A DNA stretch of 64,000 bases from Candidatus Poseidoniaceae archaeon (GCA_028822845.1 JAPKCS010000004.1:14626-78625), one strand, 5' to 3'. Numbered from the stretch's first letter, positions 32,133-62,954 are shown. Made by a program: numbers and translations. Notes: generated by a model from the sequence alone, not told the origin.

Positions 32133-32367
32133 TGTATCACCGGGGGCCAAGCCATAGGCTTCGCTAACCTTCAGCCCTAAATCGACACTTATGAGGATGA
32201 TGGAACGTTGTTCGGACATTTCCGTCTTCAGATGATAGAAATTCAAGCGCTAACCCATCCTTTCCCCTCAATTTGGCCGTGCAGAAAAAGTATCAAAGTA
32301 GGCATTCAACCGGCAGAAGGCAGCGCTTTGTTCAAAGCCCGAACGCGCTCCCGTCGGGTTGAGTCCC

Positions 32368-39547: not shown

Positions 39548-39606
39548 AATCTCACCACCCACGCTTATCCTCTTCAACTCTTGCGGCTCGGTGAGCGTTC
39601 ATTGAG

Positions 39607-42600
39607 TCATTGTTCAGGGGAGAAATTTGGATCTGGCACCCAGCTGTTGCTGGTTTCATCCCAGAGCCAACCCGGGTGGGTTGATGCTGCTGGAGCGGCT
39701 GCTACGGCTGGTGTTAGAGGGGCCGCTACGGGCTCTGGCGTTGCTTTGCCCCATGCGTAGACATCCTCGACAGGTGCGGGCCCTTCAGTATCCATTGCTC
39801 CTTCTTCATCAAAGTCTTCGTATTCAACTTGGAAGAAGAATGCACCGGCACCAATCAGAACGATTAGACCAACAATAGCACCAACGATCAACAAGAGGTT
39901 TCCGCTTCCTGCATCGGCTGAACCGGACTTCAATTGGAATAGAGAATCTGCGGTTGATCCAGGAGCGGAATAGACTTGACCATCCATTTCAAAGATAATA
40001 GCAGCCTTTTCCACACCTGAGAGTTGATTGCTGGCGATGTCCATTGACCAGGTTCCATCGGCAGCAACACGGGTTGAATTGAGGCGGATTCCCTTTGCGT
40101 CATCGAAACGAGCAGCAACGATGCTGTTTGGTAGACCTTGACCAGAGAAGGTTGCAGGGTCATTGGCGGTCACAGAACCTGTGTCAACACGCTCGGCGCT
40201 GAAAGCTACGGAGACCACAATGATGTTGACCTTGTATGAATACGCTACAGAGTCGTAAGAATCTCGTGCTTCAAACATCAGGCCAACAAGGGACCACTCG
40301 GCAATCACTGAAGTTGGTTGAACCCATGGAGGGTTGTACGTTGCGATACCTTGTGCGCTAATGGAGACGTAATCAGCATAGAAATCGTCGTCCAAATTGG
40401 TTGCATCATTGAAGATGTCAAACAAGAGATCGTTTTCTCCATCGCCGGTTCCATCGGGGTCTGAGAAGTATTCAGTCAAGTCAATGACTGCACCTTGACC
40501 GCATCGATCAATGGCGTTTGACTTGGCATCGCAGAAGATGGTGATTGTCCCAGTCCAGCCTTCTTGGTCAAAGATTGGAGCAATGTTGTTTGCATCAGTT
40601 GGATTATCAATGGTGACGCGGATCCTCTCCTCCAGTGAATAATCTTCTCCGTCATAGGCTCGAATGAGCAGTTCATACTGTTGGTCGTGAATCAGTTTTG
40701 AGGTATCCCATGTGGTGGACCAAGCGCCGTTTGATGCGAAGGTTGTCACAGGGTTTGGTCCGTTGTTTAGCATCAAACCACTGGCCAAATCTTGGATTTG
40801 AATTTCGACACGTGTCACTTGTCCGTCATTGTCTCTGGCCACGCCTTGAATGGTCTGGCTTTCAGAGGCACGAATAACGTCGCTGTTGACTGGTTCGCTC
40901 AGTTGAACGAACGGCAATGCATTGTCGTTCATGATGGTAAGTGTTCGAGTTTCAGCGTTGCATGTTCCAACAATATCCCTGCAGAAATCGCTGTCAGCAG
41001 CCCAGATACTGAAGGTGTAGGTGCCGCTTGCAAGTTCTTCAAATTGCCAATCATATGACCAGGCTGTCGATCCTTCGATGGAGAAGTGGGATGTGTAATC
41101 ATTCGGTCCACTGATGTCAAACCAAATGTTTTGGATGTCGCTCCCCCAAGTTCCTGTGTAAGGGTCGCTTGCAGAACCTGTGAAGGTCACTTTGACGTTA
41201 TCATGCGAAGTGCCATCGTTTGGTGTTTCAACGAGGATCGTTGGAGCAACGAGGTTGAGTTTGTACTTGCGCACTTCGACCGGTGAGTAATCCAGACCGT
41301 CGTAGGAGCGAACACGGAATGTGACGTCGCCTTCACCTTCAGGGTGGGCCGAAAGGTCCCAGTCAAAGGACCAGTCTTTGAACGGATGGTTCGCAAGGGT
41401 AATCTCGCCATCAGCACCAGAGGTATCCACTGCGGAGTACCAGTCATTTGATCCTGGTGGTTGGATTTCAACACGCTTAACCAAACCAAATTGCTTCTCA
41501 TAAGCTACGATGTCCAATGGATATGGACCCGAAACTCCGTCCCATGCGGTTCCAGTCAGGCTGACCGTGGTTGCGAAAGAAGCTCCATCACCTTGCGTCA
41601 CATCGACGCTTGGTTTTAGGTTGTCAAGATTGATGACGTCATCGATGGCACCGCTTAGAACAAAGTTGAACGCTTTTGTTCCCTTTCCGAATTTAGAAGC
41701 ACTCACGCTGTAGAATGGAAGCTCGCGGCCACCGGTGCAATCGGTGTCGGCATCGTCAACAAATGTATCGCCATCGTTGTCATACCCGTCAGAACAGGTG
41801 TTCTCATCCATGAATTCTGTAATGCCAGGGGCAATGGTGACTTCGACGTTGGATTCACCAACAAGGTGATTCCAGTTTCGATCGAGGTAGAAGTCACTCG
41901 GGAGAGAAATCTCGGGAGTGAAACCGAAAGCGTCGGTTTGGAGGGTGTAAAGTGGGAGACCAGTTGCATCGCTGATGACCACAGTCGCGTCATAGACGTT
42001 GCTGTTCTTGGCTTTCACCTGGTAGCGAACCAATTCCCCTTCTCGGACTTGAGTACCCCATGCGGAGTTTTGGTTTTGGACATGGACCTTACTGGCGTCG
42101 AAGTTCTGTAAATCTGCGAAAGAGAACACTGTCGAATTGGCCACAACCTCAAGGGCCATAGGCATGAACTTGGGAGGTAAAGCAGCTGTTGATGGGACTT
42201 GCAAGCACTCATCTTGAACGTACGGGCACTCAGCACCGTTCCACTGAAGGGACACGGGGTAGAGTTCGCCTCCGACCGGATCTGGTATGTATTCAGATTG
42301 AACGGTCACTCGAGATTCAGTGATGTTGTACACTTGGGAGGCATTGGTGTAACTGTTGCCTGAGAAGTAAGCAATGGAACCATACTTGTTACCGTAGTTG
42401 TCGTCATACATCGAAATATTGGCTGCAAAGCCACCGACTGCAACACTGTTACGTTGTGCGTTGACGATGCCACCTTTGATTCGGAAACCATCGCCTGCAT
42501 TGTTGGTGATGGTGTTGTCGTAAAGGGTGGCAGAGGACATGAACACGTGAATGGCTGGACAAGGAAAGTCTCCGCCATAGAGTTGAGAGTTGCAGGTTCC

Positions 42601-43941
42601 AGTGACGTTCGAGATCTGGTTGTTAGCGAGGTACAATCGAGCCGCTGTTGGCGTTGGAACGTTCCATCCTTGATCGCCAAAGTGGTATTCTCCGATGAGA
42701 ACTGCTTCCTTGCCAGTGTCTTGAATGGTGTTGTTTTCTGCAGTTACATCCGATGTCCCGTAAATCCACAGTCCATTCCAGCCACCAATCGGGCCAATGA
42801 TGTTGTTGTGGATGGCCACGGTCGAGGAACGAATACCAAACCCGGAGGATTCTGTAGCACCGCTGATGACGTTATCCCGTGCATCAACAATAGCTCCATC
42901 GTAGGCAGTAATTCCAGCACCTTCAGTGGTGGTGATGACGTTGTTCTCAATGTGCAGGGTGTGCTGGATGTCTCCAGTCTCTTTGTGGGAGTTGGTGTCA
43001 ATAGCGTTGCACTTGACGTTGATAGTGGAGTTGGTAAGCCATCCGGAAGTTCCTTTCAGGAAGATACCAAAGGAGTTGTCTTTCACTTCGATGTTTTCCA
43101 TGTTGATGTAGGACTCTTCCATGAAGATGAGGGTTCGGCCGCCACCTTGAGTGGTGCAATCGGGTTCAGTGTTCCCAACGAACTCCGAATTGCGGATGTT
43201 CACTGTTGCGAGGATACCAGCACCAGCACCGTAGGCTCGAACGGCTGCAGCATCGAAGCTGTTGCCGTCAACACCAATGGTGAAGCTTGAATCCTGAATG
43301 GTTGGTGCGGCGAAGTCGATGGCAAGAACGTTCGAGGTGTTGATGTTGGTGAATGTGAGTCCGGTGGCGGTGGTTGAAGAACCATCGAAGACAAGCACAC
43401 CGTACTGGAGTTGTTGGAGGGTTGCAACAAAGATTGGGTAGCCATATGCGTTCTCAAAGTGAGCGTAGTTGATCGCTGTGGCCGTTGCCGATTGATCGAT
43501 GGTTTTACGCAGAAGCAAACCAGATCCACAAGCAGCGTCACTGTTGATGTAGGTGTTGGAACCGTTGACATAGCAACGTCCTTCCTTTTCATAATCACTG
43601 GCTGATGGAACTGACCAAACGAAACGAGCCTGATTTGAGGCAGACCCTGCGCTTGCTCCACACGCAGTCGAACCAATGCAAATAGCGCCCTCGACATCGA
43701 TGAAGGCACCGTATGGAAGGTTGATTGTGGTTCCTGCATTGATGATGAGTTTGGATCCTTCTGCTACGGTGACGTCACCAGCAAGGTTGATTGTACCCGT
43801 CCAAGTTTCAGTGCCTGTGACTGTTCCAACGGTTGTTTCATTGACAGCGGATGCTGCGGGAAGTGAAATCAAACCTGCAACACTCGAGAGCAGGAGAAGC
43901 GCGACTAACGACAGACTTTTTCGGGAGGTATGTTCAGACAT
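39607..43941 (-). CDS. Giant (about 1444-1465 aa) C-terminally anchored surface protein with a right-handed parallel beta-helix (PbH1/NosD-like) region and Ig-like modules
   Basis: Signal peptide MSEHTSRKSLSLVALLLLSSVAGLISLPAASA. PbH1-like turns (NNVITTTEGAGITAYDGAIVDARDNVISGATESSGFGIRSSTVAIHNNII..). Cys/Asp-rich CSDGYDNDGDTFVDDADTDC motif. Big-like modules (GVARDNDGQVTRVEIQIQD). TM LLLIVGAIVGLIVLIGAGAFFF plus tail. The ORF-track start is 44004; 43941 is preceded by GGTG. Confidence 0.75.
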   Translation of the reverse strand: MSEHTSRKSLSLVALLLLSSVAGLISLPAASAVNETTVGTVTGTETWTGTINLAGDVTVAEGSKLIINAGTTINLPYGAFIDVEGAICIGSTACGASAGSASNQARFVWSVPSASDYEKEGRCYVNGSNTYINSDAACGSGLLLRKTIDQSATATAINYAHFENAYGYPIFVATLQQLQYGVLVFDGSSTTATGLTFTNINTSNVLAIDFAAPTIQDSSFTIGVDGNSFDAAAVRAYGAGAGILATVNIRNSEFVGNTEPDCTTQGGGRTLIFMEESYINMENIEVKDNSFGIFLKGTSGWLTNSTINVKCNAIDTNSHKETGDIQHTLHIENNVITTTEGAGITAYDGAIVDARDNVISGATESSGFGIRSSTVAIHNNIIGPIGGWNGLWIYGTSDVTAENNTIQDTGKEAVLIGEYHFGDQGWNVPTPTAARLYLANNQISNVTGTCNSQLYGGDFPCPAIHVFMSSATLYDNTITNNAGDGFRIKGGIVNAQRNSVAVGGFAANISMYDDNYGNKYGSIAYFSGNSYTNASQVYNITESRVTVQSEYIPDPVGGELYPVSLQWNGAECPYVQDECLQVPSTAALPPKFMPMALEVVANSTVFSFADLQNFDASKVHVQNQNSAWGTQVREGELVRYQVKAKNSNVYDATVVISDATGLPLYTLQTDAFGFTPEISLPSDFYLDRNWNHLVGESNVEVTIAPGITEFMDENTCSDGYDNDGDTFVDDADTDCTGGRELPFYSVSASKFGKGTKAFNFVLSGAIDDVINLDNLKPSVDVTQGDGASFATTVSLTGTAWDGVSGPYPLDIVAYEKQFGLVKRVEIQPPGSNDWYSAVDTSGADGEITLANHPFKDWSFDWDLSAHPEGEGDVTFRVRSYDGLDYSPVEVRKYKLNLVAPTILVETPNDGTSHDNVKVTFTGSASDPYTGTWGSDIQNIWFDISGPNDYTSHFSIEGSTAWSYDWQFEELASGTYTFSIWAADSDFCRDIVGTCNAETRTLTIMNDNALPFVQLSEPVNSDVIRASESQTIQGVARDNDGQVTRVEIQIQDLASGLMLNNGPNPVTTFASNGAWSTTWDTSKLIHDQQYELLIRAYDGEDYSLEERIRVTIDNPTDANNIAPIFDQEGWTGTITIFCDAKSNAIDRCGQGAVIDLTEYFSDPDGTGDGENDLLFDIFNDATNLDDDFYADYVSISAQGIATYNPPWVQPTSVIAEWSLVGLMFEARDSYDSVAYSYKVNIIVVSVAFSAERVDTGSVTANDPATFSGQGLPNSIVAARFDDAKGIRLNSTRVAADGTWSMDIASNQLSGVEKAAIIFEMDGQVYSAPGSTADSLFQLKSGSADAGSGNLLLIVGAIVGLIVLIGAGAFFFQVEYEDFDEEGAMDTEGPAPVEDVYAWGKATPEPVAAPLTPAVAAAPAASTHPGWLWDETSNSWVPDPNFSPEQ

Positions 43942-43978
43942 AACGGGCACCACTGTTCTAACCGTATTCTCCAGAGAG

Positions 43979-43984
43979 ATATAA
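43979..43984 (-). promoter_or_regulatory. Putative TATA box (TTATAT on the minus strand) for the beta-helix surface-protein gene
   Basis: Lies ~40 nt upstream of the ATG at 43941. This would give a short leader containing the GGTG SD. Confidence 0.3.
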
Positions 43985-44009
43985 CACTGCGCCTCTGTTG
44001 CCACCTTGA

Positions 44010-44153: not shown

Positions 44154-45383
44154 TCAGCAGACAGGAGCCGTTCGAGCAACTTCATCAATCCAATCCATAG
44201 CCTGTAGGTGACCATAGCCTGACCGATTATCATGGATTCCAGCATCATGCAACGGGGTGACTGAATTCATCAATGCCATCTTAATCGCGTCAATGCACGC
44301 ACCGTTCCCGCCAGATTGAGGTTTGTATTCCGGGTGTGCTTCCAACAGAAGGGCGAGGGCAGCTGTTACGAAGACAGTGGCATCGGAAGTTCCGCTGCTT
44401 GAGTACCATTCATTTCCGCTTCCTGTGCTAATGATTCCAACGCCTGGGGCGACAACTTCTGGCTTTTGGTGTGGATTCTGTCGTTGAGAACCATCCTCAA
44501 GAACTTGGGAACCTAAAGAAGAATTCCTCCAAACCAATGTGCCAAAGTCGGCAGCACCAACAGTGATCACCCGTGGAATGTTTGCTGGAACTGACACTAA
44601 GCCGTCGTCATCTGGCCCACCATCATTGCCTGCTGCTGCAACAACGAAGATACCTGCATCAACGGCACGTCGGGTAGCCGATGCAGTAGCACCTTCCCTT
44701 TCTGCATCGAGGTTCTGTTCACCGCCGAGGGAAAGCGAGATGATATCCGCTTGAAAGGTATCCTGACACCAACGAATGGAATCGGCCACGACGGATTCTT
44801 CGCCGCTGTTTTCACCGTTCGCATCCTCTCCTAAAGCAGCAACAACGCCAAGGCTGATCCCTGGTGCTGCACCAATTTGATGTTCTTGCGCCACGAGGAT
44901 GCCTGCCATGAGTGTACCATGGGCAATGAATCCATAATCGATTGGAGTGCTGGACCCTTTTCGCATATCTTTGAATGTGACTTCAACAGACGACAGCGCA
45001 TCGTGGGTGAGATCAATTCCAGTGTCCACCATGCACACTCGGACCCCCTCACCAGTCAAGCCTCGAGCGGCTGCTTCGTCCAATTGCGCTTGTTCATTGG
45101 CCCATTTCGAATCAGGTAGGCTGAGTTCAATCCACAGGATACCCGAGTTCCAAACCGACAGCAGTACAACCACCAGAATGGAAAAAATCAGACCATTGGT
45201 CAGCAGTCTTTGACGCTGGCGTCTGGCTTGAATCGGAGCAGCTTCCAGTGGAGCCCAGCCCGTCACCTCCGCTCGCCAGGCGCTTTGAAACCCAACCGCA
45301 GCAGGATCAATTGCTGAAACAATACGAGGATCATCCGGTTCTGGTAGAAATTCAACGTAGTCGAGTTCATCCATAGCTTTCAC
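44154..45383 (-). CDS. Membrane-anchored subtilisin-like serine protease (peptidase S8)
   Basis: Catalytic triad contexts VCMVDTGIDLTHDAL (Asp), HGTLMAGIL (His) and SGTSDATVFVTAALALL (Ser). N-terminal TM LIFSILVVVLLSVW (type II anchor). Confidence 0.85.
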   Translation of the reverse strand: MKAMDELDYVEFLPEPDDPRIVSAIDPAAVGFQSAWRAEVTGWAPLEAAPIQARRQRQRLLTNGLIFSILVVVLLSVWNSGILWIELSLPDSKWANEQAQLDEAAARGLTGEGVRVCMVDTGIDLTHDALSSVEVTFKDMRKGSSTPIDYGFIAHGTLMAGILVAQEHQIGAAPGISLGVVAALGEDANGENSGEESVVADSIRWCQDTFQADIISLSLGGEQNLDAEREGATASATRRAVDAGIFVVAAAGNDGGPDDDGLVSVPANIPRVITVGAADFGTLVWRNSSLGSQVLEDGSQRQNPHQKPEVVAPGVGIISTGSGNEWYSSSGTSDATVFVTAALALLLEAHPEYKPQSGGNGACIDAIKMALMNSVTPLHDAGIHDNRSGYGHLQAMDWIDEVARTAPVC

Positions 45384-45442: not shown

Positions 45443-48400
45443 TCAGAACCGCTTGGTGTTGCTTCCACCACGGCTCATCTTAACGCCGCCAAAGATGACA
45501 ACGATGATCAGAATGATAATGCCCACTGTGGTCAACCATGTATCGGAATCTTCTGCGGATTCAATGAAGTACTCCACTGAGAAGTCACCATCGGTGATGT
45601 TATCGGAAACGAAAGCGCTGTCTTCACCAGCAACCTCAACGTGGTATTCGAAACGTTGCGATCCTGATGGCATAGCGCCGACTTCAAACACAGCATTGGT
45701 GGTCGAAAGACCAGCGACTGAAATTGTTTGACTTCCATACGAGACGCCAGTCAGTTGGTTGGTGAGGGAAACAATCACGCTGTCAGCGTCAAGGTAGCCA
45801 AAGTTCTCGATTGGAATGCGCACTTCAGTCGATTCGACGTCAGCCGTCTGATCGCTTGCAAGGGTCACGAGACCATCGTTAATCTGACGCAATGAAATCA
45901 TAGCGGGTTTCAAATCCACATCGAACGTATCGGTGTCTTCACCGTTTTCGCTCGTCACAGTCACACTGACGGTCTTGACTGAACCATCCCAGTCACTTGG
46001 TGCAAAGACGGTGAACAGTTGGGGGCGAACTTCGTCCTTATGCAGTTCCGCATTGGATTGCATTGGTGTCACTTCCCAGCCTTCTGGGATGTTATCAGCC
46101 AAACTGATGCTAAAGGTGTCATCTCCGTTTCCATTGTTGGTCAACTTGAATGAGAATTGGCGAGATGAGCCAGCGGCGAGGCCGAGTTCAGTCACTTCAT
46201 CAGAGATTTCGAGGCCATAGGTCTGTGGGACTTGCACATCGATTGAGATTTCACTTGAAGCACCGGTGATGGTGCTCATGCGAACCTTGATCTTGTGGGC
46301 CTCATCGAAGTTGTAGGCTTCGGATTGGTTTGCAACATTCACTCGGACACGGATGGTTCCAGTGGAATCGACGGTGTCGTCGCTAGCGTTTTGTCCAACA
46401 CCGAGGTCCAAATCATACGAATCAACCCAAGCGGTACCATTGAAGAATTCAACGGACCATAGGTTGCTGTCCTGAACGGCGCCAATTGATCCTTCCACGG
46501 TGAACACATCGTTGACCTCTGTGCCTTCGTAAGCAACATCAAGGTCAAACTCGATGGTTTCGTAAGCCTCTCCGACGGGTGTAGCCATCAAACTGGTTTC
46601 ATCACCCTCAACGAGTGTTGCGTTGGTAACAGTTCCAGCAGACATAACCACCGTACTCTCAGAATTGATGGTACGTGTGAACATCATGTCCACGGGGGAT
46701 CGACCCTCACCAACAGATGTTTTACCGCCTGCAATGTATTCCATGTCAAGCAAGTCATCGTGTTGGATGGTCATGAACGTTGAGTCAAAGTCGACATCGC
46801 CGGTTGGTACAAGGATACTGAGTGTACCCTCTTCCGACAACGGCATGTCCCATGCACTGTCGCCGATTGAAACGGTAATGGTAACGCTGCCGTTCAATTT
46901 CTCAGCGCCATCTGAGCCAGCACCTGCGTGGTGGGAGCCCAAGGCGAAGTCAGTCCATTCAGTGGTGAGGTCAACCCAGCCACCGAGCTTCATTTCGAGA
47001 TCGAGTGCAGCCCCGTTAGCGATGGTTGCATCGAGCAAACCAACAGCGACACCGCCGCCGTTTTCATCTGGATTGGCTTGCGTCACAACGACGATCCATT
47101 CACCTGGAGCGATATCTGAACTCCATGTGAGGACATCGTTTGCGAACACTGCGTTGATGCTGATTGGGTCACGCACGCCATCGAGGGTCGGGTAGAGAAC
47201 GATTGTAGCGTTGACGAGGCGAGATGCATCTTTGATATCTGTCACGTTACCAGAGACTGCAACATTTCCTGCAAGGACTTCGAGGTCGTGGGATTCTGGG
47301 TTGTTTTCCACAGGGTAAGCGCTGGAATTGCTCAAGTTGTATGATTCATTTCCAAAGCCTTCCTTGCCCACTGACACTGTGTAATTGTCGTGGACTGGGA
47401 CAAACAAGGACCAGACACCGGAAGCGTCAGTGGTCACGTTCGTGTCAACATCGGTTAAGGTTCCAAGCACCACAACGAGAACGTCCTCGACACCTTCTGT
47501 CATTCCAGGGGTGTCATCTTCGTTCAAGTCCCAGTAAATCTTTCCACCGATCTCCACTTCCAAATCAGCCGTAACGATGCCCAAGTCAAGGGCTCCATCA
47601 GTAGCGTCAAGGGTGGTGAAGGAGGCATCAGAGGTATCCATGGACCAGTGGCGTTGTGGAGCCGATTCATTGAGGAAAAGGCTCCATGTGCCCGGCATCA
47701 TTGACTCTGTGACCATACCGGTGTCGTTTGACTTGGTAAGGGTCACATTGCCAAAGCCATCGTGACTCACAGCGGTAACACGCACATTTGACATGTTGTT
47801 GTTGCTGTCTGTCTCTTGCAATTGGAAGGTCACTTCGACCGTTTCAATGGTGCTGTAGGTCAATCCGGTCCTGACCGTTGAATTTGTACCAACGGTAAGA
47901 GGAGCACGAAGAACTTCCGTGGCGTTCTCGTTGGCGATGAATGGAGCAACGATGCTCACCCAGTCACCAGCAGAAACGTAGCCATGGAACGAGCCGTTTG
48001 TGTCGCTTTCAATGTTGTACCACAAATCCTGTTCTGCTTCATAGAGAAGGAACTGCTTCTCAATGGCATCACCGGAAGCGTTTGTGAGGGTACCAGTGAC
48101 AAGGTATTCGTTGCGCAATGGCATGTCCATGGTCTCGTCAATGGTGTCCAAACCAATAATGATTGGTTGAAGAGCCGTGACGCCGCCAAGGGCGAAATCG
48201 CTAGCGTTCTCTTGACCTGGTTCAGTGTAGTTGAACTGAACTGCATAGGTACCAGGTTCCAGCGAAATGGTGATGACACCAGGCGACGTATAGTTGTCAG
48301 CTGTGTAATTCATTTGCACGCCGTGGTTGTTGAGTGGTACAGCAGAGAATGAAGGGCTGACAAGTGTGCCGTTCTCGAACGAGGCATCTGCGCCTGCGTC

Positions 48401-51400
48401 CATGAAGAACTGGAGCGTCACATTCTGGTGGGCTGGGTTGGCAAAGAGTTCAATCGGAGAGGGCGGTGAACCGCTTTCTCCATCGATGTTGAAATTCTCA
48501 ACTGGTTCGATGTTCAAATCGCTGTCAATAGCGCTGAAGTCCCATTCACCATCAAGGAGGAAGAAGTTGAACTCGCCACCGGAGGTGATCTCAGTTCGCC
48601 ATTCCAAACCATCTTCATTGGTTGCAACCAAGGTTTGTGCAGACCATCCCGGGACCAGGTTGTCCCAGAGTGAAGTGTTTTCATAGAGGAACACAAAGCC
48701 GTTTGTTGCGGTCGCTGGTGCAAGGTACATGATGCCCATGGCCATTTCATTCTGCCCGTCAAGTGTGATCAATTGACCACCCGTGTAGGTCGAGAAGATA
48801 CTGATGGTGGTCATGTGGAAGTCTTGCCCGTTTGGCAAGCGCATGCTGTAGTTGCCGTCAGCATCTGTCACCGTGCTGAAGGAAAGGTCACCGGATGTGA
48901 AATCAATGGTGAGTGCGGAAGCAGCGTCGCTTTCAGTCAACTTGTTTTCATCAGTTCCTTGAACCCACAATGCATAATTATTTGCATCGATGACGGTGCG
49001 GATGCTCCCATTCACCCATGTAGCGATTGCATAAGTTCCATCGATGTTCAGGTCTTCTTCTTCTAAGAGGAAGTAGTTGAACAAGACATAGTTGTCATCC
49101 AAATCATCAGAAACCGTGTAAGCGCCCATTGGTAATTCAATGTACACCACGCCGTTCTCATCAGAGGTAGCGGTAATTGGAGCCATGAGTGAATCATCGT
49201 TGGTGAAGGTCACGACACGGTCGTTGATTGAAATCATCGAAGTTTGCGTCTCTGGATTGGTTGGAGACACAAGTTGCATGGTCACGTCGTGCATTTCAGG
49301 AACCGCCATCAACATCGAGAAGTTTTCTGAATCATCACGAACGGTGAAACTGTCGTTGACTTCATACCATCCATCGTTGTCAATGTCCACTCGGTAGAAG
49401 TAGTCTCCAGGGGCAAGAGGCCCGTACGAGAAGGTACCGTTTTCGTCGGTGATGATGTCAACTGCGAATTCTTCGCCGAGGCCTTCATCGACCAATTCAA
49501 TGGTTTCGTTTGCAAAGATGATGCTGAAGAAGTCTTCCAGTGTGTCTTCGAAGATGGAACCCGGCATTGACATTTCCAGATCATAGGTTGGAGTGATGCC
49601 AATATCAACTGGGCGAGGAAGGAGCACTTCTTTTCCGTTGTCCAATTGAGCAATCATGTTGTACATGCCCGGGACAAGTCCAGTGAGGTAGAAGGAACCG
49701 GGTTGAACCATGGATCCCGAAAAGTGACCTTGACCGATGAACAAGCCAGTGCCGTTGAGCGTTCCTGTTCCTTCAAAGGAACCAGTTGCTTCCAACGTAG
49801 CGTTGATCACTTCAGTGACCAGGGTCGAAACGCCTTGAGACGTCAAACGACCGTTGGCTGTGATTTCTCCATCGAGCAGGTAAGTCGTGAGTGCGCCAGT
49901 GCTGTCCTTGACACAGATGGATTCGTTGGTCGGCATCGAAGTCGTGTCGTTTTCGACATAACAATCAACGATGCTTTCGTTTGAAATCCAGCTAGCCTCG
50001 AGTGTACCAACACCGTTCCATGTACCATTGCTGGTGTAGGTTCGCTTGTCGGCGATTGAACGAGTAAAGGTTCCAGTGAAGTCCTGAGCAAAGGCGACAC
50101 CTTCGCTTTCGAAGGTTCCGTTTTCGGTGAATGTTACTTCACCGGTTCCTTGGAGGATTCGACTGTCTTCAGAAGTGAAGGACCCGTTGGTTGTTGTGAG
50201 GGTGTAGTTTTCTGTCATCGACCAAATGCTACGGAGCACAAAGGTGGTGTCAACAAGGGGATCACCGTTGAAAGATTCTGCACCTGTCCATGAAACAAGA
50301 CCGGAAACACCACTGCTCTTGACAGCGATGTCCATAGCCTCTGTGGCGGCTGCATCGTCAGCACGGTCTGCTTGTTCAGCAGTTACGTTCAGTTGGGTCT
50401 CGCCCAACCATGTCATGTTCGCAACTTCACCGAGAATAGCTGTGATGTCGTTCACATAACGATCTTCGTTGGTTTCGGTGAGGATGTCAGCAAGACCGTC
50501 CACAAAGGAACCTGTTCGTACGCTGTCGCGAGCGTTCGTTGGATCGTATTCACCAGCAAAGGCTGAGACACGGATTCGGCCTGCAGGAGCATCAAAGCTC
50601 CACTTGCCATCTTCATCAGCATCAACGAAGCCGATTGGAATCCAATAGGTGTCTCCGTCGAGGTCTTCTGTACCTTCACCAGAGAAGGCGTCACGCTCAA
50701 TGAGCAGACGAACACCGGACAAACCTTGTCCGTTGTCGCTCATGGATACCTGACCTGAAACTTCAGCACCAGAGTAGTACTTGAGGATCTTCACGTAGGT
50801 GTTGGTTTGGCCAATACTAGCGTTCGCATCTTCATTGTACCAGTTGCTGATTACAAAGTGATTCGACATGGCGCCAGGAAGTGGAAGAGCTTGGCTCAAT
50901 GCACTACCAGGGCTGCCTTGTTGGCCAAAGTGCTGTGCAGGTTGGGGATTGGAAGAACCGGAATCGATACCGAGCGTTGAAGCGCCGTAACCAACGTAGG
51001 TGTTGGCGAGCATGGTGTTGAAGAACGCAGGGTTATGGTCGACACGAACATCTTGAACTTGCAATGGGTCAATTTCTGCACCAGCTTGCTGATTGAGGAA
51101 ATCCTCGGTGATGGCTGCATCGACTTCTTCTCGAGTCATTTCATCTTGGAATTCGCCACGGGTGGTTTCGTAGACTTCATCCATGAATGTGCTAATGTCT
51201 TGTCCACTGAGGATTGTAGGAGCTCCGAAGATTCCCATTGGCTGGCCACGGTTGTAGCCTGCATCTGCAGTGTACCGTCCAGCCTTGGGGTAGAGTCGGC
51301 TGTCAATAGCAAAGTAACGGATTTCGTGATCACGCTCGACCATCTCACCAGGAGCGCCGTAGTAATCTTGTACGGAATAGTAGTCTTCCATGTTGATCAG

Positions 51401-54400
51401 TTCATCATAGAAGTCGACAATTTGTCCGTCGTCCAGTGTGTTACCAATGAATTGCACAGTCAAGGCCAAACGAGCATTCACCCGGTGGATGTTGGTGGAG
51501 ACTGAGTCGTATTCTTCGACAAGGTCCTCGGTGTACCAGTAATCGTTGATGATGTAATGCGTTGTCTCATCGGATGAGTCTTGAGCGGAACGAATGTTGT
51601 TGGTGAACGTGCGCTCTGCTTCTGAAAGTTCAGTCCAATCGCTGCCTTGGCAAGTCACTGAAAGCACGTCTGTGCATTCAATTTGAACCGAATCCTTGTA
51701 GATCCTGTAAACCATGGTTGAACTGTCAAATGCACCGTCGACCTGATGGTATCCTTCTGCCATGACGACGTCTCGGTTGGTCTTGATGACCTTGAAACTG
51801 CTTTCAACCAAAAGGGTCTTCATATCCTCTTTGTCATCGTCTGTGTTAATGGTGACGAAATCATCAAATTGAGCCTGTGTGAAGTGGTTATCGGCGATAT
51901 TCGAGAATCCATCAGTGAATTCATAGTTACCTGTGTTGGCATTTTGGTAGGCAATGTCGCCTTGACCTAATTGCCAAATGAACATGGAGATGAGGTCTTC
52001 TTGAGATTGTGCTAAGAGCATGTTCCCAGTTGCAGGAATACCGGATTGGAAGTTGTCCGAAACGGATGGATGCTCACCTTGGCTGAGTGCTTGGAAACCG
52101 TAGTCCCACCATGATACAAACGCAGGACGTTCCGAATATTGTTCATCGGTGTCCTGATCGGCGAGCCAAGAATAAGCGGCGTTCCAACTGTTATCGTTGA
52201 AACCAGAGCCCATGGAGCCGAGGTACCAGTTGCCGTCGTAGGCGCTGTCATCAAGCAAAGAGAATCCAGCAATTTCGAAACGAAGTGCGTCAGGGATGAG
52301 GTTGAAGATTGTTTCATCAAGTTCTTCTTCTGCTGACACCGTGGATGGAATTGCTGCATCCAATCCGTAGGTCGCTTGTTGTCCAAAGAGCATGATCATC
52401 ACAAGAATGATCGCTGAGAAGTTAGGTGTGCGCCACAATGCTTTGCGAGCGCCGCGAATGCGGTCTTCTGGAGATCGGATTCCGAACTTTTTCCAGGTAC
52501 GAACCATTCCGCTCCAATTGCCCCACTTCCACAATGAAACGATGCCCCATGCGCCAAGGATAGCGATGGCAGGTGTTGCGTTGAACATGAACCGAGCTGC
52601 TGTCCAAGCCATGTAGGAAGCGACAAGGATCCAAACACCGAAGATGAGGTTTGTGTGCTTGCGTTCTCGGAGGCCGGAAATGAGGCAAAGAAGACCCATA
52701 ACCAACGATAAGAGGAAGGTGATTGGTCCGAACTGTGCGAAGAGTTGTCCTCTGTCGCTTGCATTTGCTTCGGCAACCGTTCCGAAAATCTTCGTCTTGG
52801 TGAAGTAACCGCCGCCAGTGAACAAGACGTCCCAGGCGTTGGAGATGTCAGCGAACTTCAAGGCGTAGAGCAAAGAGAAGAACACGGCACTTCCGACACC
52901 AAGGACACCAAGAACCAGCAACCAAGGTTTGTCTCGGAAGCCAATGGTGACAAAGGCAATGGCCAAAGTGAAGATGGCGATGAACAAGAACGGCTGAAGG
53001 CCAGTTCCGTCAAGCACGAGGTTTAGTTGAGGGTGCCCGTAGAACGGCAATGCCATCAAGAAATTGACCGCAAGCATGGTGATGAAGAGCACGCTCAATG
53101 TTGTCGAATCCCTTCGGCGGAACATGTTCAATGCAACTTGCAATGCATAAGCAAGGAACAAGATCGATGGCCCAACGACGAACCCTTTCCAGCCAAGGGA
53201 AACCACACCGAATGAAACACCGGCGAGCACTGCATACGAAAGAGCGGCAGTGCGTTGGTTGGCAACCGCAGAGAAGGATTGCATGTAGGTCGACAACGAG
53301 GGAGTCGTGGTGCGGAGAAGACGGTCGCTACCGGCATACTTGGCTGCTTTGAGCCAGAACATGAAGCCCATTGTCAAGAAGAGCATGATGAAGGCATCGT
53401 GATCTGCAAGAGCGAAGGTGGTGTGAGATACGTGTGCTGGCATGAAGGCCAGGAGCCAAGCAGCAACGACTGCTGCTTTCTCGTTGACATGCTCACGGGC
53501 GATGGCGGCGACCGGTAGGATGGTCAAAGCGCCATAGACAGAAGGCAACACGAGGATGGACCACCAGACTGCAGAGTCAGCGCCAACGAATGGTTTGAGG
53601 ATCATAGCAAGCAAAGCGATCGACCACGTGAACAATGGTGGACGAGGATTGATGCCACCAACTGGGTAGAATCGGTCGGAGTCAACAATCATGTGAGCGT
53701 TGTTCGCCAAAATGTAGTCGACAACTCGCTTCATGTACCAAGGGTCAGAACCACCGGTCATGTCCCAGGTGTTGGTTCCGAGGGAGTTCATCGAAGGGAG
53801 CACATACCATAGGTTTCGGATAACGAAACCAAAGAAGAAGGCCATACCAATCATGATGCTGGCCCAGTGTGCGTTCCAGAATTGACGAGCACCGGATGGC
53901 TCGAATTCACTGCGGTTGGACCAACCGCCCCATTTCTCACCTGTGGAAATCACGTAAATGATTGCACAGATGAAGAAGGTAAAGGCCAACCAAATTAGTG
54001 CGCCCCAACTGCCTTCAAAGGCTTCGTTTTGGATCATGCCAGCCTCATACCAAGCCGAAACGAGGTAAAGGACCCACATTGAACCGATGAGCATGGAACG
54101 AGTGTACCAGCGTTCTGAAGCCATGCCGGCAACGATCAAAGCAACCATTCCAGTGAAGAATGCGCTCCAGAAACCGAAGTAACCATGGTATGCTGCGAGT
54201 TCAGGATACTGACTGACTGCTTGACCACTGAATGGGCCAAAGACGTTGAACATGAGCTGGTCATCGTTCATGAGGTAATTGAAATGCCACAAGCTTCCGA
54301 TGTGAGCCAGTGCCCAAACACCCAGTCCAATTTGGAGGGGGAGAGTCGAGCGGTTCCATGACCCGTTACCATCGGTAATGTGGCTGAACCAGCCTTTCTC

Positions 54401-55003
54401 AGAGGATGGCGAAAGAACGCCACGGGCGAGAACTGCTCCAAGAAGACCAAGGATGGTGAAGAGCATAGCATAGCTGAAGAATTGGTAACCAACAGCCCCA
54501 CGGTACGCATCCAAGACGCCGATTGAAACACCGGTGGACATGGTCAGTGTGGTGGAGAGGTTTGCAGCCATATTTTCAGCGGCCACGAATCCGAGCTGGA
54601 CACCGATGGCAGCAAAAATCAACACGTTTGCCCATTCGAACGAACGGCGCATGTGAAGGGTGTGAATTCCAAACATGACCACGAAGAACAGCAGAGCGCT
54701 GACCGCTCCGAGTTCTGCCATGTAGACCAATTCGGCACCGACAATAGCAACGCCCAGTGAAACGAGAGAGAGGGTGGAGGCTGCAAGAGTGATGGTGCCG
54801 TTGGCGTGAAGCACGCGAGGTGCGAGACCAAGCGATGCTGCCGCAAGGACGACAAGCATTGGTGTCAGGTTTTCAAAGTTGAGATCGAAGGACAAGCCAA
54901 CAATCTGTGTCGCTGCGAGCGCTAGAAGCACTGCTAGGGGGGCAATAAGCCAACCAAGCATAGGTGCTGGCGCTGGGCGCGGTTCGGGGTTTTTCGTTTC
55001 CAT
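45443..55003 (-). CDS. aglB: Giant (3186 aa) AglB/STT3-family oligosaccharyltransferase with an extra N-terminal polytopic segment, a ~2100-aa C-terminal ectodomain and a terminal TM anchor
   Basis: GGSDPWYMKR (res ~417-426), ALADHDAF (~532-539), TVAE (~742-745) and WWDYG (res 965-969, nt 52097-52111, checked against the DNA). About 375 hydrophobic residues precede the canonical first TM. Downstream there are carboxypeptidase-regulatory-like and CARDB-like modules (FKLTNNGNGDDTFSISL, IPIENFGYLDADSVIVSL). The final TM is TVGIIILIIVVIFGGV. Confidence 0.8.
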   Translation of the reverse strand: METKNPEPRPAPAPMLGWLIAPLAVLLALAATQIVGLSFDLNFENLTPMLVVLAAASLGLAPRVLHANGTITLAASTLSLVSLGVAIVGAELVYMAELGAVSALLFFVVMFGIHTLHMRRSFEWANVLIFAAIGVQLGFVAAENMAANLSTTLTMSTGVSIGVLDAYRGAVGYQFFSYAMLFTILGLLGAVLARGVLSPSSEKGWFSHITDGNGSWNRSTLPLQIGLGVWALAHIGSLWHFNYLMNDDQLMFNVFGPFSGQAVSQYPELAAYHGYFGFWSAFFTGMVALIVAGMASERWYTRSMLIGSMWVLYLVSAWYEAGMIQNEAFEGSWGALIWLAFTFFICAIIYVISTGEKWGGWSNRSEFEPSGARQFWNAHWASIMIGMAFFFGFVIRNLWYVLPSMNSLGTNTWDMTGGSDPWYMKRVVDYILANNAHMIVDSDRFYPVGGINPRPPLFTWSIALLAMILKPFVGADSAVWWSILVLPSVYGALTILPVAAIAREHVNEKAAVVAAWLLAFMPAHVSHTTFALADHDAFIMLFLTMGFMFWLKAAKYAGSDRLLRTTTPSLSTYMQSFSAVANQRTAALSYAVLAGVSFGVVSLGWKGFVVGPSILFLAYALQVALNMFRRRDSTTLSVLFITMLAVNFLMALPFYGHPQLNLVLDGTGLQPFLFIAIFTLAIAFVTIGFRDKPWLLVLGVLGVGSAVFFSLLYALKFADISNAWDVLFTGGGYFTKTKIFGTVAEANASDRGQLFAQFGPITFLLSLVMGLLCLISGLRERKHTNLIFGVWILVASYMAWTAARFMFNATPAIAILGAWGIVSLWKWGNWSGMVRTWKKFGIRSPEDRIRGARKALWRTPNFSAIILVMIMLFGQQATYGLDAAIPSTVSAEEELDETIFNLIPDALRFEIAGFSLLDDSAYDGNWYLGSMGSGFNDNSWNAAYSWLADQDTDEQYSERPAFVSWWDYGFQALSQGEHPSVSDNFQSGIPATGNMLLAQSQEDLISMFIWQLGQGDIAYQNANTGNYEFTDGFSNIADNHFTQAQFDDFVTINTDDDKEDMKTLLVESSFKVIKTNRDVVMAEGYHQVDGAFDSSTMVYRIYKDSVQIECTDVLSVTCQGSDWTELSEAERTFTNNIRSAQDSSDETTHYIINDYWYTEDLVEEYDSVSTNIHRVNARLALTVQFIGNTLDDGQIVDFYDELINMEDYYSVQDYYGAPGEMVERDHEIRYFAIDSRLYPKAGRYTADAGYNRGQPMGIFGAPTILSGQDISTFMDEVYETTRGEFQDEMTREEVDAAITEDFLNQQAGAEIDPLQVQDVRVDHNPAFFNTMLANTYVGYGASTLGIDSGSSNPQPAQHFGQQGSPGSALSQALPLPGAMSNHFVISNWYNEDANASIGQTNTYVKILKYYSGAEVSGQVSMSDNGQGLSGVRLLIERDAFSGEGTEDLDGDTYWIPIGFVDADEDGKWSFDAPAGRIRVSAFAGEYDPTNARDSVRTGSFVDGLADILTETNEDRYVNDITAILGEVANMTWLGETQLNVTAEQADRADDAAATEAMDIAVKSSGVSGLVSWTGAESFNGDPLVDTTFVLRSIWSMTENYTLTTTNGSFTSEDSRILQGTGEVTFTENGTFESEGVAFAQDFTGTFTRSIADKRTYTSNGTWNGVGTLEASWISNESIVDCYVENDTTSMPTNESICVKDSTGALTTYLLDGEITANGRLTSQGVSTLVTEVINATLEATGSFEGTGTLNGTGLFIGQGHFSGSMVQPGSFYLTGLVPGMYNMIAQLDNGKEVLLPRPVDIGITPTYDLEMSMPGSIFEDTLEDFFSIIFANETIELVDEGLGEEFAVDIITDENGTFSYGPLAPGDYFYRVDIDNDGWYEVNDSFTVRDDSENFSMLMAVPEMHDVTMQLVSPTNPETQTSMISINDRVVTFTNDDSLMAPITATSDENGVVYIELPMGAYTVSDDLDDNYVLFNYFLLEEEDLNIDGTYAIATWVNGSIRTVIDANNYALWVQGTDENKLTESDAASALTIDFTSGDLSFSTVTDADGNYSMRLPNGQDFHMTTISIFSTYTGGQLITLDGQNEMAMGIMYLAPATATNGFVFLYENTSLWDNLVPGWSAQTLVATNEDGLEWRTEITSGGEFNFFLLDGEWDFSAIDSDLNIEPVENFNIDGESGSPPSPIELFANPAHQNVTLQFFMDAGADASFENGTLVSPSFSAVPLNNHGVQMNYTADNYTSPGVITISLEPGTYAVQFNYTEPGQENASDFALGGVTALQPIIIGLDTIDETMDMPLRNEYLVTGTLTNASGDAIEKQFLLYEAEQDLWYNIESDTNGSFHGYVSAGDWVSIVAPFIANENATEVLRAPLTVGTNSTVRTGLTYSTIETVEVTFQLQETDSNNNMSNVRVTAVSHDGFGNVTLTKSNDTGMVTESMMPGTWSLFLNESAPQRHWSMDTSDASFTTLDATDGALDLGIVTADLEVEIGGKIYWDLNEDDTPGMTEGVEDVLVVVLGTLTDVDTNVTTDASGVWSLFVPVHDNYTVSVGKEGFGNESYNLSNSSAYPVENNPESHDLEVLAGNVAVSGNVTDIKDASRLVNATIVLYPTLDGVRDPISINAVFANDVLTWSSDIAPGEWIVVVTQANPDENGGGVAVGLLDATIANGAALDLEMKLGGWVDLTTEWTDFALGSHHAGAGSDGAEKLNGSVTITVSIGDSAWDMPLSEEGTLSILVPTGDVDFDSTFMTIQHDDLLDMEYIAGGKTSVGEGRSPVDMMFTRTINSESTVVMSAGTVTNATLVEGDETSLMATPVGEAYETIEFDLDVAYEGTEVNDVFTVEGSIGAVQDSNLWSVEFFNGTAWVDSYDLDLGVGQNASDDTVDSTGTIRVRVNVANQSEAYNFDEAHKIKVRMSTITGASSEISIDVQVPQTYGLEISDEVTELGLAAGSSRQFSFKLTNNGNGDDTFSISLADNIPEGWEVTPMQSNAELHKDEVRPQLFTVFAPSDWDGSVKTVSVTVTSENGEDTDTFDVDLKPAMISLRQINDGLVTLASDQTADVESTEVRIPIENFGYLDADSVIVSLTNQLTGVSYGSQTISVAGLSTTNAVFEVGAMPSGSQRFEYHVEVAGEDSAFVSDNITDGDFSVEYFIESAEDSDTWLTTVGIIILIIVVIFGGVKMSRGGSNTKRF

Positions 55004-55187: not shown

Positions 55188-56447
55188 TCAAAGAGCTCGG
55201 TGGCCAATGTCAGTCCTGTGGTGCGCCCCTTCAAGTTCGATCGATTCAAGCAAAGCATAGGCTCGAACAGCCGCTTCGGCCAAAGATGAACCAAGACCGG
55301 TGCAAGTCAGAACTCGCCCACCGGTTGAGATGAGAGCACCGCCTTCATCGTAGCCCGTACCGGCATGGTTGACCCACGCCATCCCAGTCGGCGCCGGCAC
55401 TCCAGAAATCAAACGGCCTTTGACCGGTGAGGCAGGGTAACCTTCCGCTGCGATAACCACTGTGAGTGCATGCAGATCGTGGAACATTACGTCCAATTCA
55501 GCAAGCCTGTCGGTCGCCGAGGCGTGCAGGACTTCGTACACATCCGTTGCCATTAATGGCAGGGTAATTTGACATTCCGGATCGCCAAAACGGACGTTAA
55601 ATTCGACAACACTTGGGTTGCCTTCATCCGTGATCATAAGCCCGACGTACAGCACCCCGCGGTAGGGCGTGGGTTGCGATGAAAGGTAGGTGTGCATGGG
55701 TTTGACAACATCGCGTACGACCTTCTCCAAAACCTCTGGTGTAGCCACTGGCGCAGGGCAGTAAGCGCCCATGCCACCTGTGTTTGGGCCCTCATCCCCA
55801 TCGTAGGCCCGCTTGTGATCTTGACTTGGCGGGAGGCAGACAAAACCTGAGCCGTCCATGACAACCAACATGCTCGCCTCCTCCCCTTCGAGAAACGCTT
55901 CGAGCAGAACCTTGCCATCGGACTTGATCGAGGCTTCAATGAATGCTTTTGCCTCTGCCCGATTGGAGGTGACAACAACGCCTTTGCCTCCTGCAAGCAC
56001 ATCTCTTTTGACAACCCATGGATGGCCTGAAAAATCATCCAACGCTGAATCAAGATCAGAATGTGGCCCTAGGACATGGAAATCTGCAGTTGGTACGCCT
56101 GCAATTCCCATCACTTCCTTGGCATGAAGTTTCGAGCCTTCCAATTCCGCCAAGGCTTTCACCGGGCCGAAGCAGGGGATTCCTGCGGTATGAAGATCAT
56201 CTGCAAGTGCATCGCACAAGGGCGCTTCAGGCCCGACCACAACCAGATCGACAGCAAGCGTCTGAGCCAAAGCCACCAAACCGTCCACATTCGAAGCAGA
56301 CACAGGATGATTTGTTGCCATCGCCGAGGTGCCAGCATTTCCCGGAGCGCAGTGAACGCCTCCGACATGTTCGGATCTTGACATGGCCATGCACAAGGCG
56401 TGTTCTCGCCCGCCGCCGCCAACAATCAAAACCGTCCGTTGCGCCAT
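55188..56447 (-). CDS. purD: Phosphoribosylamine-glycine ligase
   Basis: VLIVGGGGREHALCMAM, PGNAGT, ATP-grasp blocks VVKRDVLAGGKGVVV and EEFLEGEE-like LEAFLEGEEAS, DHKRAYDGDEGPNTGGMGAY, EFNVRFGDPE. Confidence 0.93.
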   Translation of the reverse strand: MAQRTVLIVGGGGREHALCMAMSRSEHVGGVHCAPGNAGTSAMATNHPVSASNVDGLVALAQTLAVDLVVVGPEAPLCDALADDLHTAGIPCFGPVKALAELEGSKLHAKEVMGIAGVPTADFHVLGPHSDLDSALDDFSGHPWVVKRDVLAGGKGVVVTSNRAEAKAFIEASIKSDGKVLLEAFLEGEEASMLVVMDGSGFVCLPPSQDHKRAYDGDEGPNTGGMGAYCPAPVATPEVLEKVVRDVVKPMHTYLSSQPTPYRGVLYVGLMITDEGNPSVVEFNVRFGDPECQITLPLMATDVYEVLHASATDRLAELDVMFHDLHALTVVIAAEGYPASPVKGRLISGVPAPTGMAWVNHAGTGYDEGGALISTGGRVLTCTGLGSSLAEAAVRAYALLESIELEGAHHRTDIGHRAL

Positions 56448-62860: not shown

Positions 62861-62954
62861 GGTCCCGCCAGTTTGGGGTAAAGCCCCGAGTATTTGTTGA
62901 TTCCCACATTTCACTGACCCAAACGCTCTTGAACACTGCTGTGAACGCCGCATC

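Follow-up and report, generated by a model that had tools for sequence, protein, structure and literature searches.

A giant AglB of Marine Group II archaea: an oligosaccharyltransferase core fused to a sequon-rich, doubly anchored ectodomain

In a 64,000-nucleotide (nt) stretch of DNA from a Candidatus Poseidoniaceae archaeon (GCA_028822845.1, JAPKCS010000004.1:14626-78625; hereafter, the window), a single gene at 45443..55003 on the (-) strand encodes a protein of 3,186 amino acids (aa), which we call giant AglB. This protein appears to be an oligosaccharyltransferase (OST) of the AglB/STT3 type whose catalytic core is preceded by 10 predicted transmembrane (TM) helices and followed by an extension of about 2,150 aa that is rich in N-X-S/T sequons and ends in a second membrane anchor. 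We hold it to be moderately probable that giant AglB is an active OST permanently fused to a self-glycosylated, doubly anchored arch or stalk of the cell envelope. To our knowledge, AglB/STT3 is the one universally conserved N-glycosylation enzyme of archaea and eukaryotes, and all of the characterised catalytic subunits that we know of are stand-alone proteins of roughly 500-1,100 aa. The giant AglB is real, ancient and widespread, and its design is apparently undescribed in the literature.

Marine Group II (MGII) archaea are among the most abundant archaea of the surface ocean. Literature searches returned no paper pairing AglB with Poseidoniales and nothing on large or fused AglBs, and the main comparative genomic studies of MGII (Rinke 2018; Tully 2019) mention neither STT3, 'oligosaccharyl transferase', the S-layer nor glycosylation and are silent on the Poseidoniales envelope. 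In a metatranscriptome paper, an 'oligosaccharyltransferase', which may or may not be the product of the giant AglB gene, appears among the genes enriched in an active MGIIb genus (PMC9723583). The names carried by public database entries are uninformative ('hypothetical protein', 'GT39 family', 'glycosyltransferase family 39 protein', 'STT3 domain-containing protein' and 'carboxypeptidase regulatory-like domain-containing protein'), and a scaffold gap in the 2012 reference genome, described below, may be one reason why the gene went unremarked.

Results

The gene begins with ATG, runs for 3,186 codons without an internal stop and ends in a stop codon at 45443-45445; the 9.56-kb open reading frame (ORF) reported in a first-pass annotation, made from the sequence alone, is one unbroken frame. 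The predicted product has a mass of 347 kDa when unglycosylated, a pI of 4.1 and a total of 24 TM helices, of which 10 lie in the N-terminal module, about 13 in the core and one at the C-terminus. When relatives were sought across GTDB with a single genome per species, 381 species genomes were found to encode one, the closest being 92% identical, and all of the matches with names belonged to Ca. Poseidoniales/Poseidoniaceae (Marine Group II), bar two 'bacterial' records of metagenome-assembled genomes (MAGs). These two records (L042, CAXQWT010000055.1, labelled Salipiger bermudensis; L067, CAXRAI010000019.1, labelled Salinimicrobium sp.) bear the archaeal purD-AglB-S8-beta-helix-STAND block described below and are almost certainly mis-binned Poseidoniales contigs. 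A protein search yielded more than 115 full-length homologues of 3,109-3,227 aa, with identity down to 49%; the giant AglB of Thalassarchaeaceae is 39% identical, a comparison that spans the two MGII families.

Among 79 Poseidoniales loci retrieved, 23 were cut by contig ends and 56 were complete, and 53 of these 56 carry an intact ORF of 3,162-3,225 aa. The three interrupted loci are explained by a gap or by single stops: in CM001443.1, the 2012 MG-II reference genome, the orthologue lies in two frames that break at an N-run at ~12638-12656, and L018 and L042 each contain one in-frame stop within an otherwise full-length match. Because of this N-run scaffold gap, giant AglB could not be called as one gene in that reference. 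The first-pass annotation had advised a check with long reads; two assemblies that are long-read by record name (LRMED-012 and a pilon-polished contig) carry the gene unbroken. Against the closest relative (dS 0.3-0.47), the ratio of nonsynonymous to synonymous substitution rates (dN/dS) was lowest in the core (0.060), with values of 0.076 in the N-terminal module and 0.10-0.14 in segments of the ectodomain, and all segments of giant AglB are under strong purifying selection. The GC content across the gene (0.49-0.55) is close to that of the window overall (0.49-0.55). Since orthologous ORFs are intact and dN/dS is low throughout, the fusion is real, and selection maintains every part of it.

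The region from aa ~371 to ~1005 is identified, from profile, motif and fold matches, as a putatively complete STT3/AglB catalytic core, and we accordingly name the protein an AglB. Its TM portion (aa 371-885; 52349..53893, (-)), with about 13 TM helices, is matched by Pfam STT3 PF02516 at aa 419-812 (E = 3.4e-13; 50.3 bits vs a 24.5-bit cut-off), and a weak AglB_core-like Pfam match follows at aa 957-1002. The best-matching NCBIfam model was TIGR04154 (archaeo_STT3), which aligned with aa 384-1002 at E = 8.5e-49, although its score of 166.6 bits is below the curated 450-bit cut-off for membership in this archaeosortase A system-associated AglB subfamily. A phmmer search against the PDB matched aa 401-815 to Archaeoglobus fulgidus AglB-L (3waj and 5gmy; E = 6e-10). 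Foldseek, run with an AlphaFold2 (AF2) model of aa 1-1200 (all AF2 alignments were built from full-length homologue rows), found solely AglB/STT3/PglB structures at E <= 0.05; the top 16 matches were all OSTs, with 7e9s at E = 3.5e-8. All four approaches thus detect STT3 within the residues, ~380-1000, in which its hallmarks had been seen at first pass.

Four metal- and substrate-binding motifs mark this core, and all lie where they had been placed before: the acidic motif of external loop 1 (EL1), GGSDPWY (aa 417-423; 53735-53755, (-)); the second divalent-cation-binding motif, of DxD/DxH type, ADHD (aa 533-536; 53396-53407, (-)); the TIXE-type motif of external loop 5, TVAE (aa 742-745; 52769-52780, (-)); and the invariant WWDYG (aa 965-969; 52097..52111, (-)), for which the earlier nucleotide coordinates proved exact. 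In the phmmer alignment, GGSDPWY, ADHD and WWDYG face GGNDPWY, NDHH and WWDYG of A. fulgidus AglB-L, and WWDYG also aligns with that of the AglB-S C-terminal domains 3vu0 and 3vgp. Residues D420, D534/H535/D536 and E745 are invariant among 20-27 homologues, and T742, A744 and E745 of TVAE are invariant in the aligned homologues.

Beyond the membrane core lies a periplasmic domain (aa 886-1400; 50804..52348, (-)), in which the WWDYG-bearing AglB core unit is succeeded by a conserved alpha/beta module (aa 1006-1400) with the marks IRYFAIDxRLYP, GIFGAP and FFxTMLARTYVGY and an invariant C1110/C1118 pair. The stretch of aa 1006-1500 is as conserved as the core (column identity 0.82-0.84); the conserved AglB-linked region reaches ~1400, rather than ending near residue 1000 as previously drawn. 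The remainder of the earlier picture, a beta-sandwich-like tail following the core, was borne out for its carboxypeptidase-regulatory (CarboxypepD_reg)- and CARDB-like modules and not for aa ~1006-1400, which are mixed alpha/beta and common to giant AglBs.

The ectodomain proper begins with a highly conserved CarboxypepD_reg-like beta-sandwich (aa 1401-1495; 50519..50803, (-); Pfam E = 0.0017 on the segment), followed by a conserved Gly/Thr-rich region (aa 1496-1800; 49604..50518, (-)) with an invariant C1681/C1697 pair and six conserved sequons. Next comes an array of ~10 divergent transthyretin/prealbumin-like beta-sandwich units of ~95 aa each (aa 1801-2775; 46679..49603, (-)), with CarboxypepD_reg, SpaA, SdrD_B and NOMO-like matches. 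These repeats were missed both by a hidden Markov model (HMM) of a single unit and by hhalign -alt; pairwise unit-vs-unit hhalign alone revealed the network, with probabilities of 54-92%. A segment with no family match and no relation to the other units (aa 2776-2925; 46229..46678, (-)) separates the array from two DUF11/CARDB-like (choice-of-anchor-T-like) immunoglobulin (Ig)-fold domains (aa 2926-3150; 45554..46228, (-)), which are matched by NCBIfam choice_anch_T (E = 5.8e-12, under its cut-off), DUF11 (9e-5) and CARDB (0.004). The chain closes with a hydropathic TM helix (aa 3156-3174) and a basic, predicted cytoplasmic tail, KMSRGGSNTKRF (together 45446..45538, (-)), both found in all 20 aligned homologues. 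The architecture proposed at first pass, in which the core is embedded between a polytopic N-terminal segment and an ectodomain of ~2,100 aa with a second TM anchor and a short basic tail, is therefore supported.

Only six Cys occur in the whole protein, and the external invariant pairs are C1110/C1118 and C1681/C1697. The distal units are 33-46% identical among homologues, compared with 69-72% in the core. In close relatives, the CARDB-like end (45554-46603; aa ~2801-3150) diverges faster: it is 63% identical to P0002, vs 78-90% elsewhere and 81% overall, and its dN is 0.27 vs 0.07-0.17, with dN/dS still at or below 0.19. The final residue (45446-45448) was Phe in all 53 complete loci (RF in 40, KF in 13), which hints at a possible recognition signal on the short tail. 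Profile searches against the PDB found no relatives of aa 1006-1500 or of the ectodomain among solved structures, and profile scans of the ~2,150-aa extension revealed no lectin, thioredoxin, peptidyl-prolyl isomerase or other substrate-handling domain.

The composition of the ectodomain is that of a surface glycoprotein. Residues 1401-3150 contain 45 N-X-S/T sequons, against 20.0 +/- 3.8 expected from composition (~2.3-fold), a count reached in none of 300 shuffles, and an excess of roughly two-fold was seen in all 20 aligned homologues, in which the first 1,400 aa showed no enrichment. Thirteen sequon columns of the ectodomain, at aa 1529, 1539, 1628, 1659, 1693, 1750, 1832, 2051, 2109, 2266, 2419, 2794 and 2855, recur in 16 or more of the 20 sequences and count as conserved. 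With 279 acidic and 59 basic residues, the ectodomain has a pI of 4.05 and a net charge of about -220, and it thus combines an acidic, sequon-enriched, Ig-like exterior with a C-terminal membrane anchor. PGF-CTERM sorting signals are typical of archaeal surface glycoproteins; the C-terminus of giant AglB (...DSDTWLTTVGIIILIIVVIFGGVKMSRGGSNTKRF) has no PGF, and the protein is in this respect not a substrate of the PGF-CTERM/archaeosortase A type. PGF-CTERM-like C-termini do occur in distant giants (L081/L082, ...VPGFEALMML...RRRWAR; L100, ...TPGFEGAAAL...RRRRL; L157, ...IPGFEALAL...RRRDKR), implying a lipid-anchored far end of AglB in these lineages.

The N-terminal extension (aa 1-370; 53894..55003, (-)) precedes the canonical first helix of STT3. 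The hydrophobic segment already noted there resolves into 10 predicted TM helices: hydropathy peaks at aa 19-352, and the AF2 model places 10 helices within aa 14-354 (14-35 ... 333-354), ahead of STT3 TM1 at aa 371-401. When this N-module was modelled alone from a more diverse alignment, AF2 returned a predicted local distance difference test score (pLDDT) of 79 and a predicted TM-score of 0.80. By the positive-inside rule, its N-terminus would be cytoplasmic, which agrees with an inside-to-outside course of STT3 TM1. The N-module had no Pfam match at E < 1, and Foldseek found no fold match in the PDB (best E = 0.085; TM-scores about 0.1-0.2 and at most 0.23, to G protein-coupled receptors and miscellaneous helical bundles); we therefore do not identify it with any known transporter, flippase or phosphatase. 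Derivation from a duplicated segment of STT3 and an internal 5+5 repeat were also rejected, with hhalign probabilities of 0.1-0.3%. What remains is a confidently predicted membrane fold with neither a sequence nor a structural relative.

Within MGII, the N-module is present in both families, the Thalassarchaeaceae protein P0133 being 21-35% identical in this region; profile searches of loci and representatives showed it to be absent from giant AglBs outside Poseidoniales. A shorter precursor was sought by hmmsearch in the regions upstream of WWDYG in 80 loci and ~130 representatives, and only marginal matches on core TM helices were obtained; a marine class of AglBs of 2,340-2,367 aa has just a basic N-terminal tail of ~50 aa. 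The N-module is thus, as far as these sequences indicate, a gain of the Poseidoniales lineage solely. Separately, P0181, a 2,747-aa AglB from Thermoplasmatota, contains, where its STT3 TM region gives way to the periplasmic domain (roughly aa 480-730), an extra polytopic insertion of ~250 aa, which is a second, independent addition of membrane helices to a giant AglB.

Relatives outside Poseidoniales came from HMMER, run exhaustively against 1.84 billion representatives with aa 1-1200 as the query. Among the 149 matches listed, 97 representatives are at least 2,000 aa long and fall into two classes: 9 of 3,100-3,300 aa match from their N-terminus, and 88 of 2,000-2,900 aa match from query aa ~375-415, corresponding to their own aa ~5-100. 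The aa 1006-1500 module is present in 96 of these 97, and a C-terminal TM helix likewise in 96. In BLASTP comparisons, the collinearity of members of the shorter class (e.g., P0138) with giant AglB extends from the core over the periplasmic module and the beta-sandwich array to the C-terminus, and Pfam detected CarboxypepD_reg in 12 of 12 (best E = 7e-51), SdrD_B in 10 of 12 and NOMO_5th in 9 of 12 (best E = 4e-12). They are encoded in MAGs assigned to Thermoplasmata, Thermoplasmatota and Methanomassiliicoccales, and the metagenomes that yielded them sample sludge, sediment, soil, hot springs, mine drainage and marine habitats. A total of 419 metagenome loci encode a relative; 80 were retrieved, and their complete ORFs (about 60) span 2,070-2,495 aa, nearly all ending in a TM helix and an R/K-rich tail. 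Intermediate forms comprise one anchored protein of 1,442 aa and proteins of ~1,150 aa with a partial module and no anchor.

Because the Thermoplasmata and Methanomassiliicoccales forms are collinear with giant AglB, the C-terminal extension and the second anchor are ancestral at the level of the phylum. On this evidence, the fusion of the ~2,150-aa extension predates Poseidoniales and is common to other Thermoplasmatota, and insertions at ~1021-1207 and ~1495-1800 are Poseidoniales additions. The architecture of giant AglB is thus order-wide, not peculiar to one genome, with a phylum-wide C-terminal extension. The extension, which might have been encoded elsewhere as a separate gene, is fused in every related locus examined (53 in Poseidoniales and ~60 ORFs from other lineages).

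The surroundings of the gene are also conserved. In the order purD > AglB > S8 subtilase > beta-helix/Big_7 > HTH-STAND-TPR, five genes lie on one strand with gaps of 184, 59, 149 and 29 nt, and this order is kept across Poseidoniales loci. Upstream, purD (GAR synthetase; 55188..56447, (-)) lies 184 nt before the AglB start. Downstream, the membrane-anchored S8 subtilase of 409 aa (44154..45383, (-)) begins 59 nt past the AglB stop and is syntenic throughout Poseidoniales; it lies directly 3' of AglB on the same strand in 65 of 79 loci, most of the others ending first at a contig edge, and its N-terminal signal-anchor places the catalytic domain outward. It is followed by a secreted 1,465-aa beta-helix/Big_7 protein with a signal peptide (39607..44004, (-)) and, as the last gene of the block, an 851-aa HTH-STAND NTPase-TPR protein (37022..39577, (-)). 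The latter, in which a Crp-like HTH at the N-terminus is joined to a STAND/AAA_16 NTPase and to TPR repeats, is the best-conserved member of the block, with 66-98% identity across loci. The first-pass annotation had AglB heading an array with a subtilase and a giant sequon-rich adhesin; the subtilase, beta-helix and STAND genes do stand in conserved order, but the beta-helix neighbour holds 12 sequons vs 15.8 expected, and we drop the 'sequon-rich adhesin' label for it. The S8, beta-helix and STAND genes were considered as universal partners of giant AglB and rejected as such, none being found by tblastn (E <= 1e-5) in 80 non-Poseidoniales loci; purD is near giant AglB in 18 non-Poseidoniales loci.

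One Methanomassiliicoccales MAG (L160, JACIVX010000001.1) has a 2,172-aa AglB that is followed, at 16519-17771, by a 256-aa CARDB protein, the start of which overlaps the AglB stop, and then by a 107-aa thioredoxin with a weak OST3/OST6 Pfam match; the locus recalls the Poseidoniales neighbourhood in having, within 5 kb, purD as well as a Beta_helix/NosD protein of more than 2,086 aa. In the window itself, no agl glycosyltransferase cluster flanks the gene, and the nearest GT2 gene is about 28 kb off. Other flanking genes encode CarS (CDP-archaeol synthase), surface proteins and archaeal pilin-like proteins, among them a gene pair at 33236-36549 (+) for proteins of 361 and 743 aa with archaeal type IV pilin-like N-termini (DUF7289/Pilin_N). 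Large secreted proteins of 1,807, 1,955 (TSP3 repeat) and 830 aa are encoded at 20921-32246 (-) and 60464-62956 (-). Because the 1,955-aa protein (28 sequons vs 17.4 expected) and the 830-aa protein (26 vs 11.3) are significantly enriched, they are probable substrates of AglB.

Discussion

The findings on giant AglB lead us to favour, with measured confidence, the reading of an active OST that is permanently fused to a self-glycosylated arch or stalk anchored at both ends. The N-terminus would lie inside, the catalytic loops and the whole ectodomain outside, and the C-terminal tail again inside. Like any AglB, the enzyme would transfer a dolichol-linked glycan to N-X-S/T at the outer face of the membrane, and its own ectodomain would be a major substrate, glycosylated by the same or neighbouring enzyme copies. 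The glycosylated Ig-like chain, pinned to the membrane at both ends, may then form an arch or stalk in the cell envelope, that is, a structural glycocalyx or spacer element reminiscent of NOMO, which would hold the enzyme in the surface layer that it helps build. The N-module could be a lineage-specific membrane partner (scaffold) of the core, or it could handle the lipid-linked substrate, namely the dolichol-linked donor or carrier; the data do not choose between the two. Of the three roles floated at first pass for the extension (a scaffold or spacer within the envelope, a substrate-recruiting or lectin module, and an envelope protein fused to its own glycosylation enzyme), the third best fits the sequon enrichment, and none of the three is proven.

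Several points weigh against this reading. The AF2 model of aa 1-1200 has low confidence (pLDDT 60.8), although it contains about 13 helices at aa 371-884, and because of this low confidence the packing of the N-module on the core is not readable from it. Five of six sequence and fold features of AglB/STT3 are present; in the region of the sixth, the DK/MI motif of the +2 Ser/Thr pocket, the conserved D1003-L-x-S-M1007-F-I-W1010 fits neither DxxKxxx(M/I) nor MxxIxxx(I/V/W) cleanly and the model is of low confidence. A scan that covered the 64-kb window found no other STT3 gene there. An enzyme would not be expected to reach the copy number of a coat protein, and the proposed envelope or spacer role is drawn from composition and architecture. 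The matches to NOMO fall short of family membership (NOMO1-like_9th at 17.9-18.5 bits and NOMO_3rd at 16.2 bits vs 27-bit cut-offs; E ~0.002-0.01); the fold is common in prokaryotic surface proteins, and the likeness to NOMO is an analogy that does not indicate orthology.

An alternative that we consider unlikely is that the extension is a built-in accessory subunit: the ectodomain, perhaps together with the N-module, would capture, hold or chaperone acceptors from the Sec translocon, or would act as a lectin or quality-control platform. With its 24 TM helices and a bulky external part rich in beta-sandwiches, giant AglB resembles the multi-subunit eukaryotic OST, the class of the structures 6ezn and 6s7o, which are among our Foldseek matches. 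Moreover, the core-level conservation of aa 1006-1500 and its presence in 96 of 97 giants suggest that this part works with the active site, and in the Methanomassiliicoccales locus AglB is followed by the CARDB protein and by the thioredoxin with the weak OST3/OST6 match. However, substrate-handling domains were not detected in about 2,150 aa; ~13 tandem Ig-like domains and a second anchor exceed the needs of a docking platform; the distal units change rapidly, a pattern usual for exposed structural repeats; and the strong, conserved excess of sequons singles out the ectodomain as a substrate.

A polyprotein, synthesised as one chain for 1:1 production and co-insertion and then cut, for example by the adjacent S8 subtilase, into an AglB of ~1,400 aa and an anchored surface glycoprotein, strikes us as distinctly improbable, even though the subtilase adjoins AglB in most Poseidoniales loci with its catalytic domain on the outside, and the ectodomain, being acidic and rich in sequons and ending in a TM helix or, in some lineages, a PGF-CTERM, is by itself built like an ordinary archaeal surface glycoprotein. 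The same fusion occurs without an adjacent subtilase in all 80 non-Poseidoniales loci and in the Methanomassiliicoccales locus. The junction of core and extension shows neither a low-complexity linker nor a weakly conserved hinge, aa 1201-1500 being among the best-conserved residues of the protein, and the two halves are never split in any locus examined, although gene fission is easy. An artefact of mis-assembly, read-through annotation or pseudogene decay joining AglB to a neighbouring surface-protein gene, for which three broken loci of 56, including CM001443.1, might be cited, is ruled out by the comparative data and receives virtually no credence from us, given the 53 independent species-level assemblies with an intact ORF of near-constant length (two of them apparently long-read), the coincidence of the CM001443.1 break with an N-run, dN/dS values of 0.06-0.14 everywhere and a gene GC content close to that of the window.

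The favoured reading of a self-glycosylated envelope arch could be carried one step further, for Poseidoniales as well as for other Thermoplasmatota with the 2,000-2,800-aa form. In this doubtful extension, the OST and a principal glycoprotein of the cell coat would be one polypeptide, doubly anchored arches, glycosylated by their own or a neighbouring active site, would form the glycocalyx and replace or support an S-layer, and the N-module would be a new membrane-protein fold acting on the lipid-linked glycan or on the carrier of that glycan.

Across a deep divergence, Poseidoniales and much of the phylum have retained an OST joined to a rod of Ig-like domains that is ~2,000 aa long, rich in sequons and anchored at both ends. 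Giant AglB thus offers a concrete, conserved and probably highly exposed envelope component for metaproteomic, cryo-electron tomographic and phage-receptor work, and it may be regarded as a natural single-chain counterpart of the multi-subunit eukaryotic OST.

The closest known systems include the AglBs of other Thermoplasmatota (2,050-2,800 aa), which share its layout from the core through the periplasmic module, array and CARDB-like domains to the C-terminal TM helix and basic tail, often with purD nearby. What sets them apart is the absence of the 10-TM N-module, of the insertions at ~1021-1207 and ~1495-1800 and of the adjacent S8/beta-helix/STAND block; their cores are 28-36% identical to that of giant AglB. 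A. fulgidus AglB-L (3waj/7e9s; GT66/STT3) shares the 13-TM GT-C core and the EL1 acidic, DHD, TIXE-type and WWDYG motifs. Its chain has about 870 residues, however, compared with 3,186 aa in giant AglB, which adds 10 N-terminal TM helices, about 13 Ig-like domains and a second membrane anchor, and whose aa 1006-1400 have no detectable similarity to solved AglB C-terminal domains. Archaeal S-layer-type glycoproteins, such as the Haloferax volcanii S-layer glycoprotein and other PGF-CTERM/ArtA substrates, are likewise acidic, sequon-rich and Ig-like and end in a TM helix and a basic tail; unlike them, giant AglB has no PGF motif and is covalently joined to its would-be glycosylating enzyme. Finally, eukaryotic NOMO, of the BOS complex at the translocon of the endoplasmic reticulum (ER), is also a non-cytoplasmic chain of transthyretin/Ig-like domains with a C-terminal TM helix and a short cytoplasmic tail. 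NOMO is a type I membrane protein that forms a ~27-nm 'beads on a string' rod, the length of which sets the ER intermembrane distance (PMC8327139). Its signal peptide is cleaved and it contains no enzyme domain, whereas the rod of giant AglB begins at an OST; because its N-terminal end is this OST, the rod would be anchored at both ends in the same membrane.

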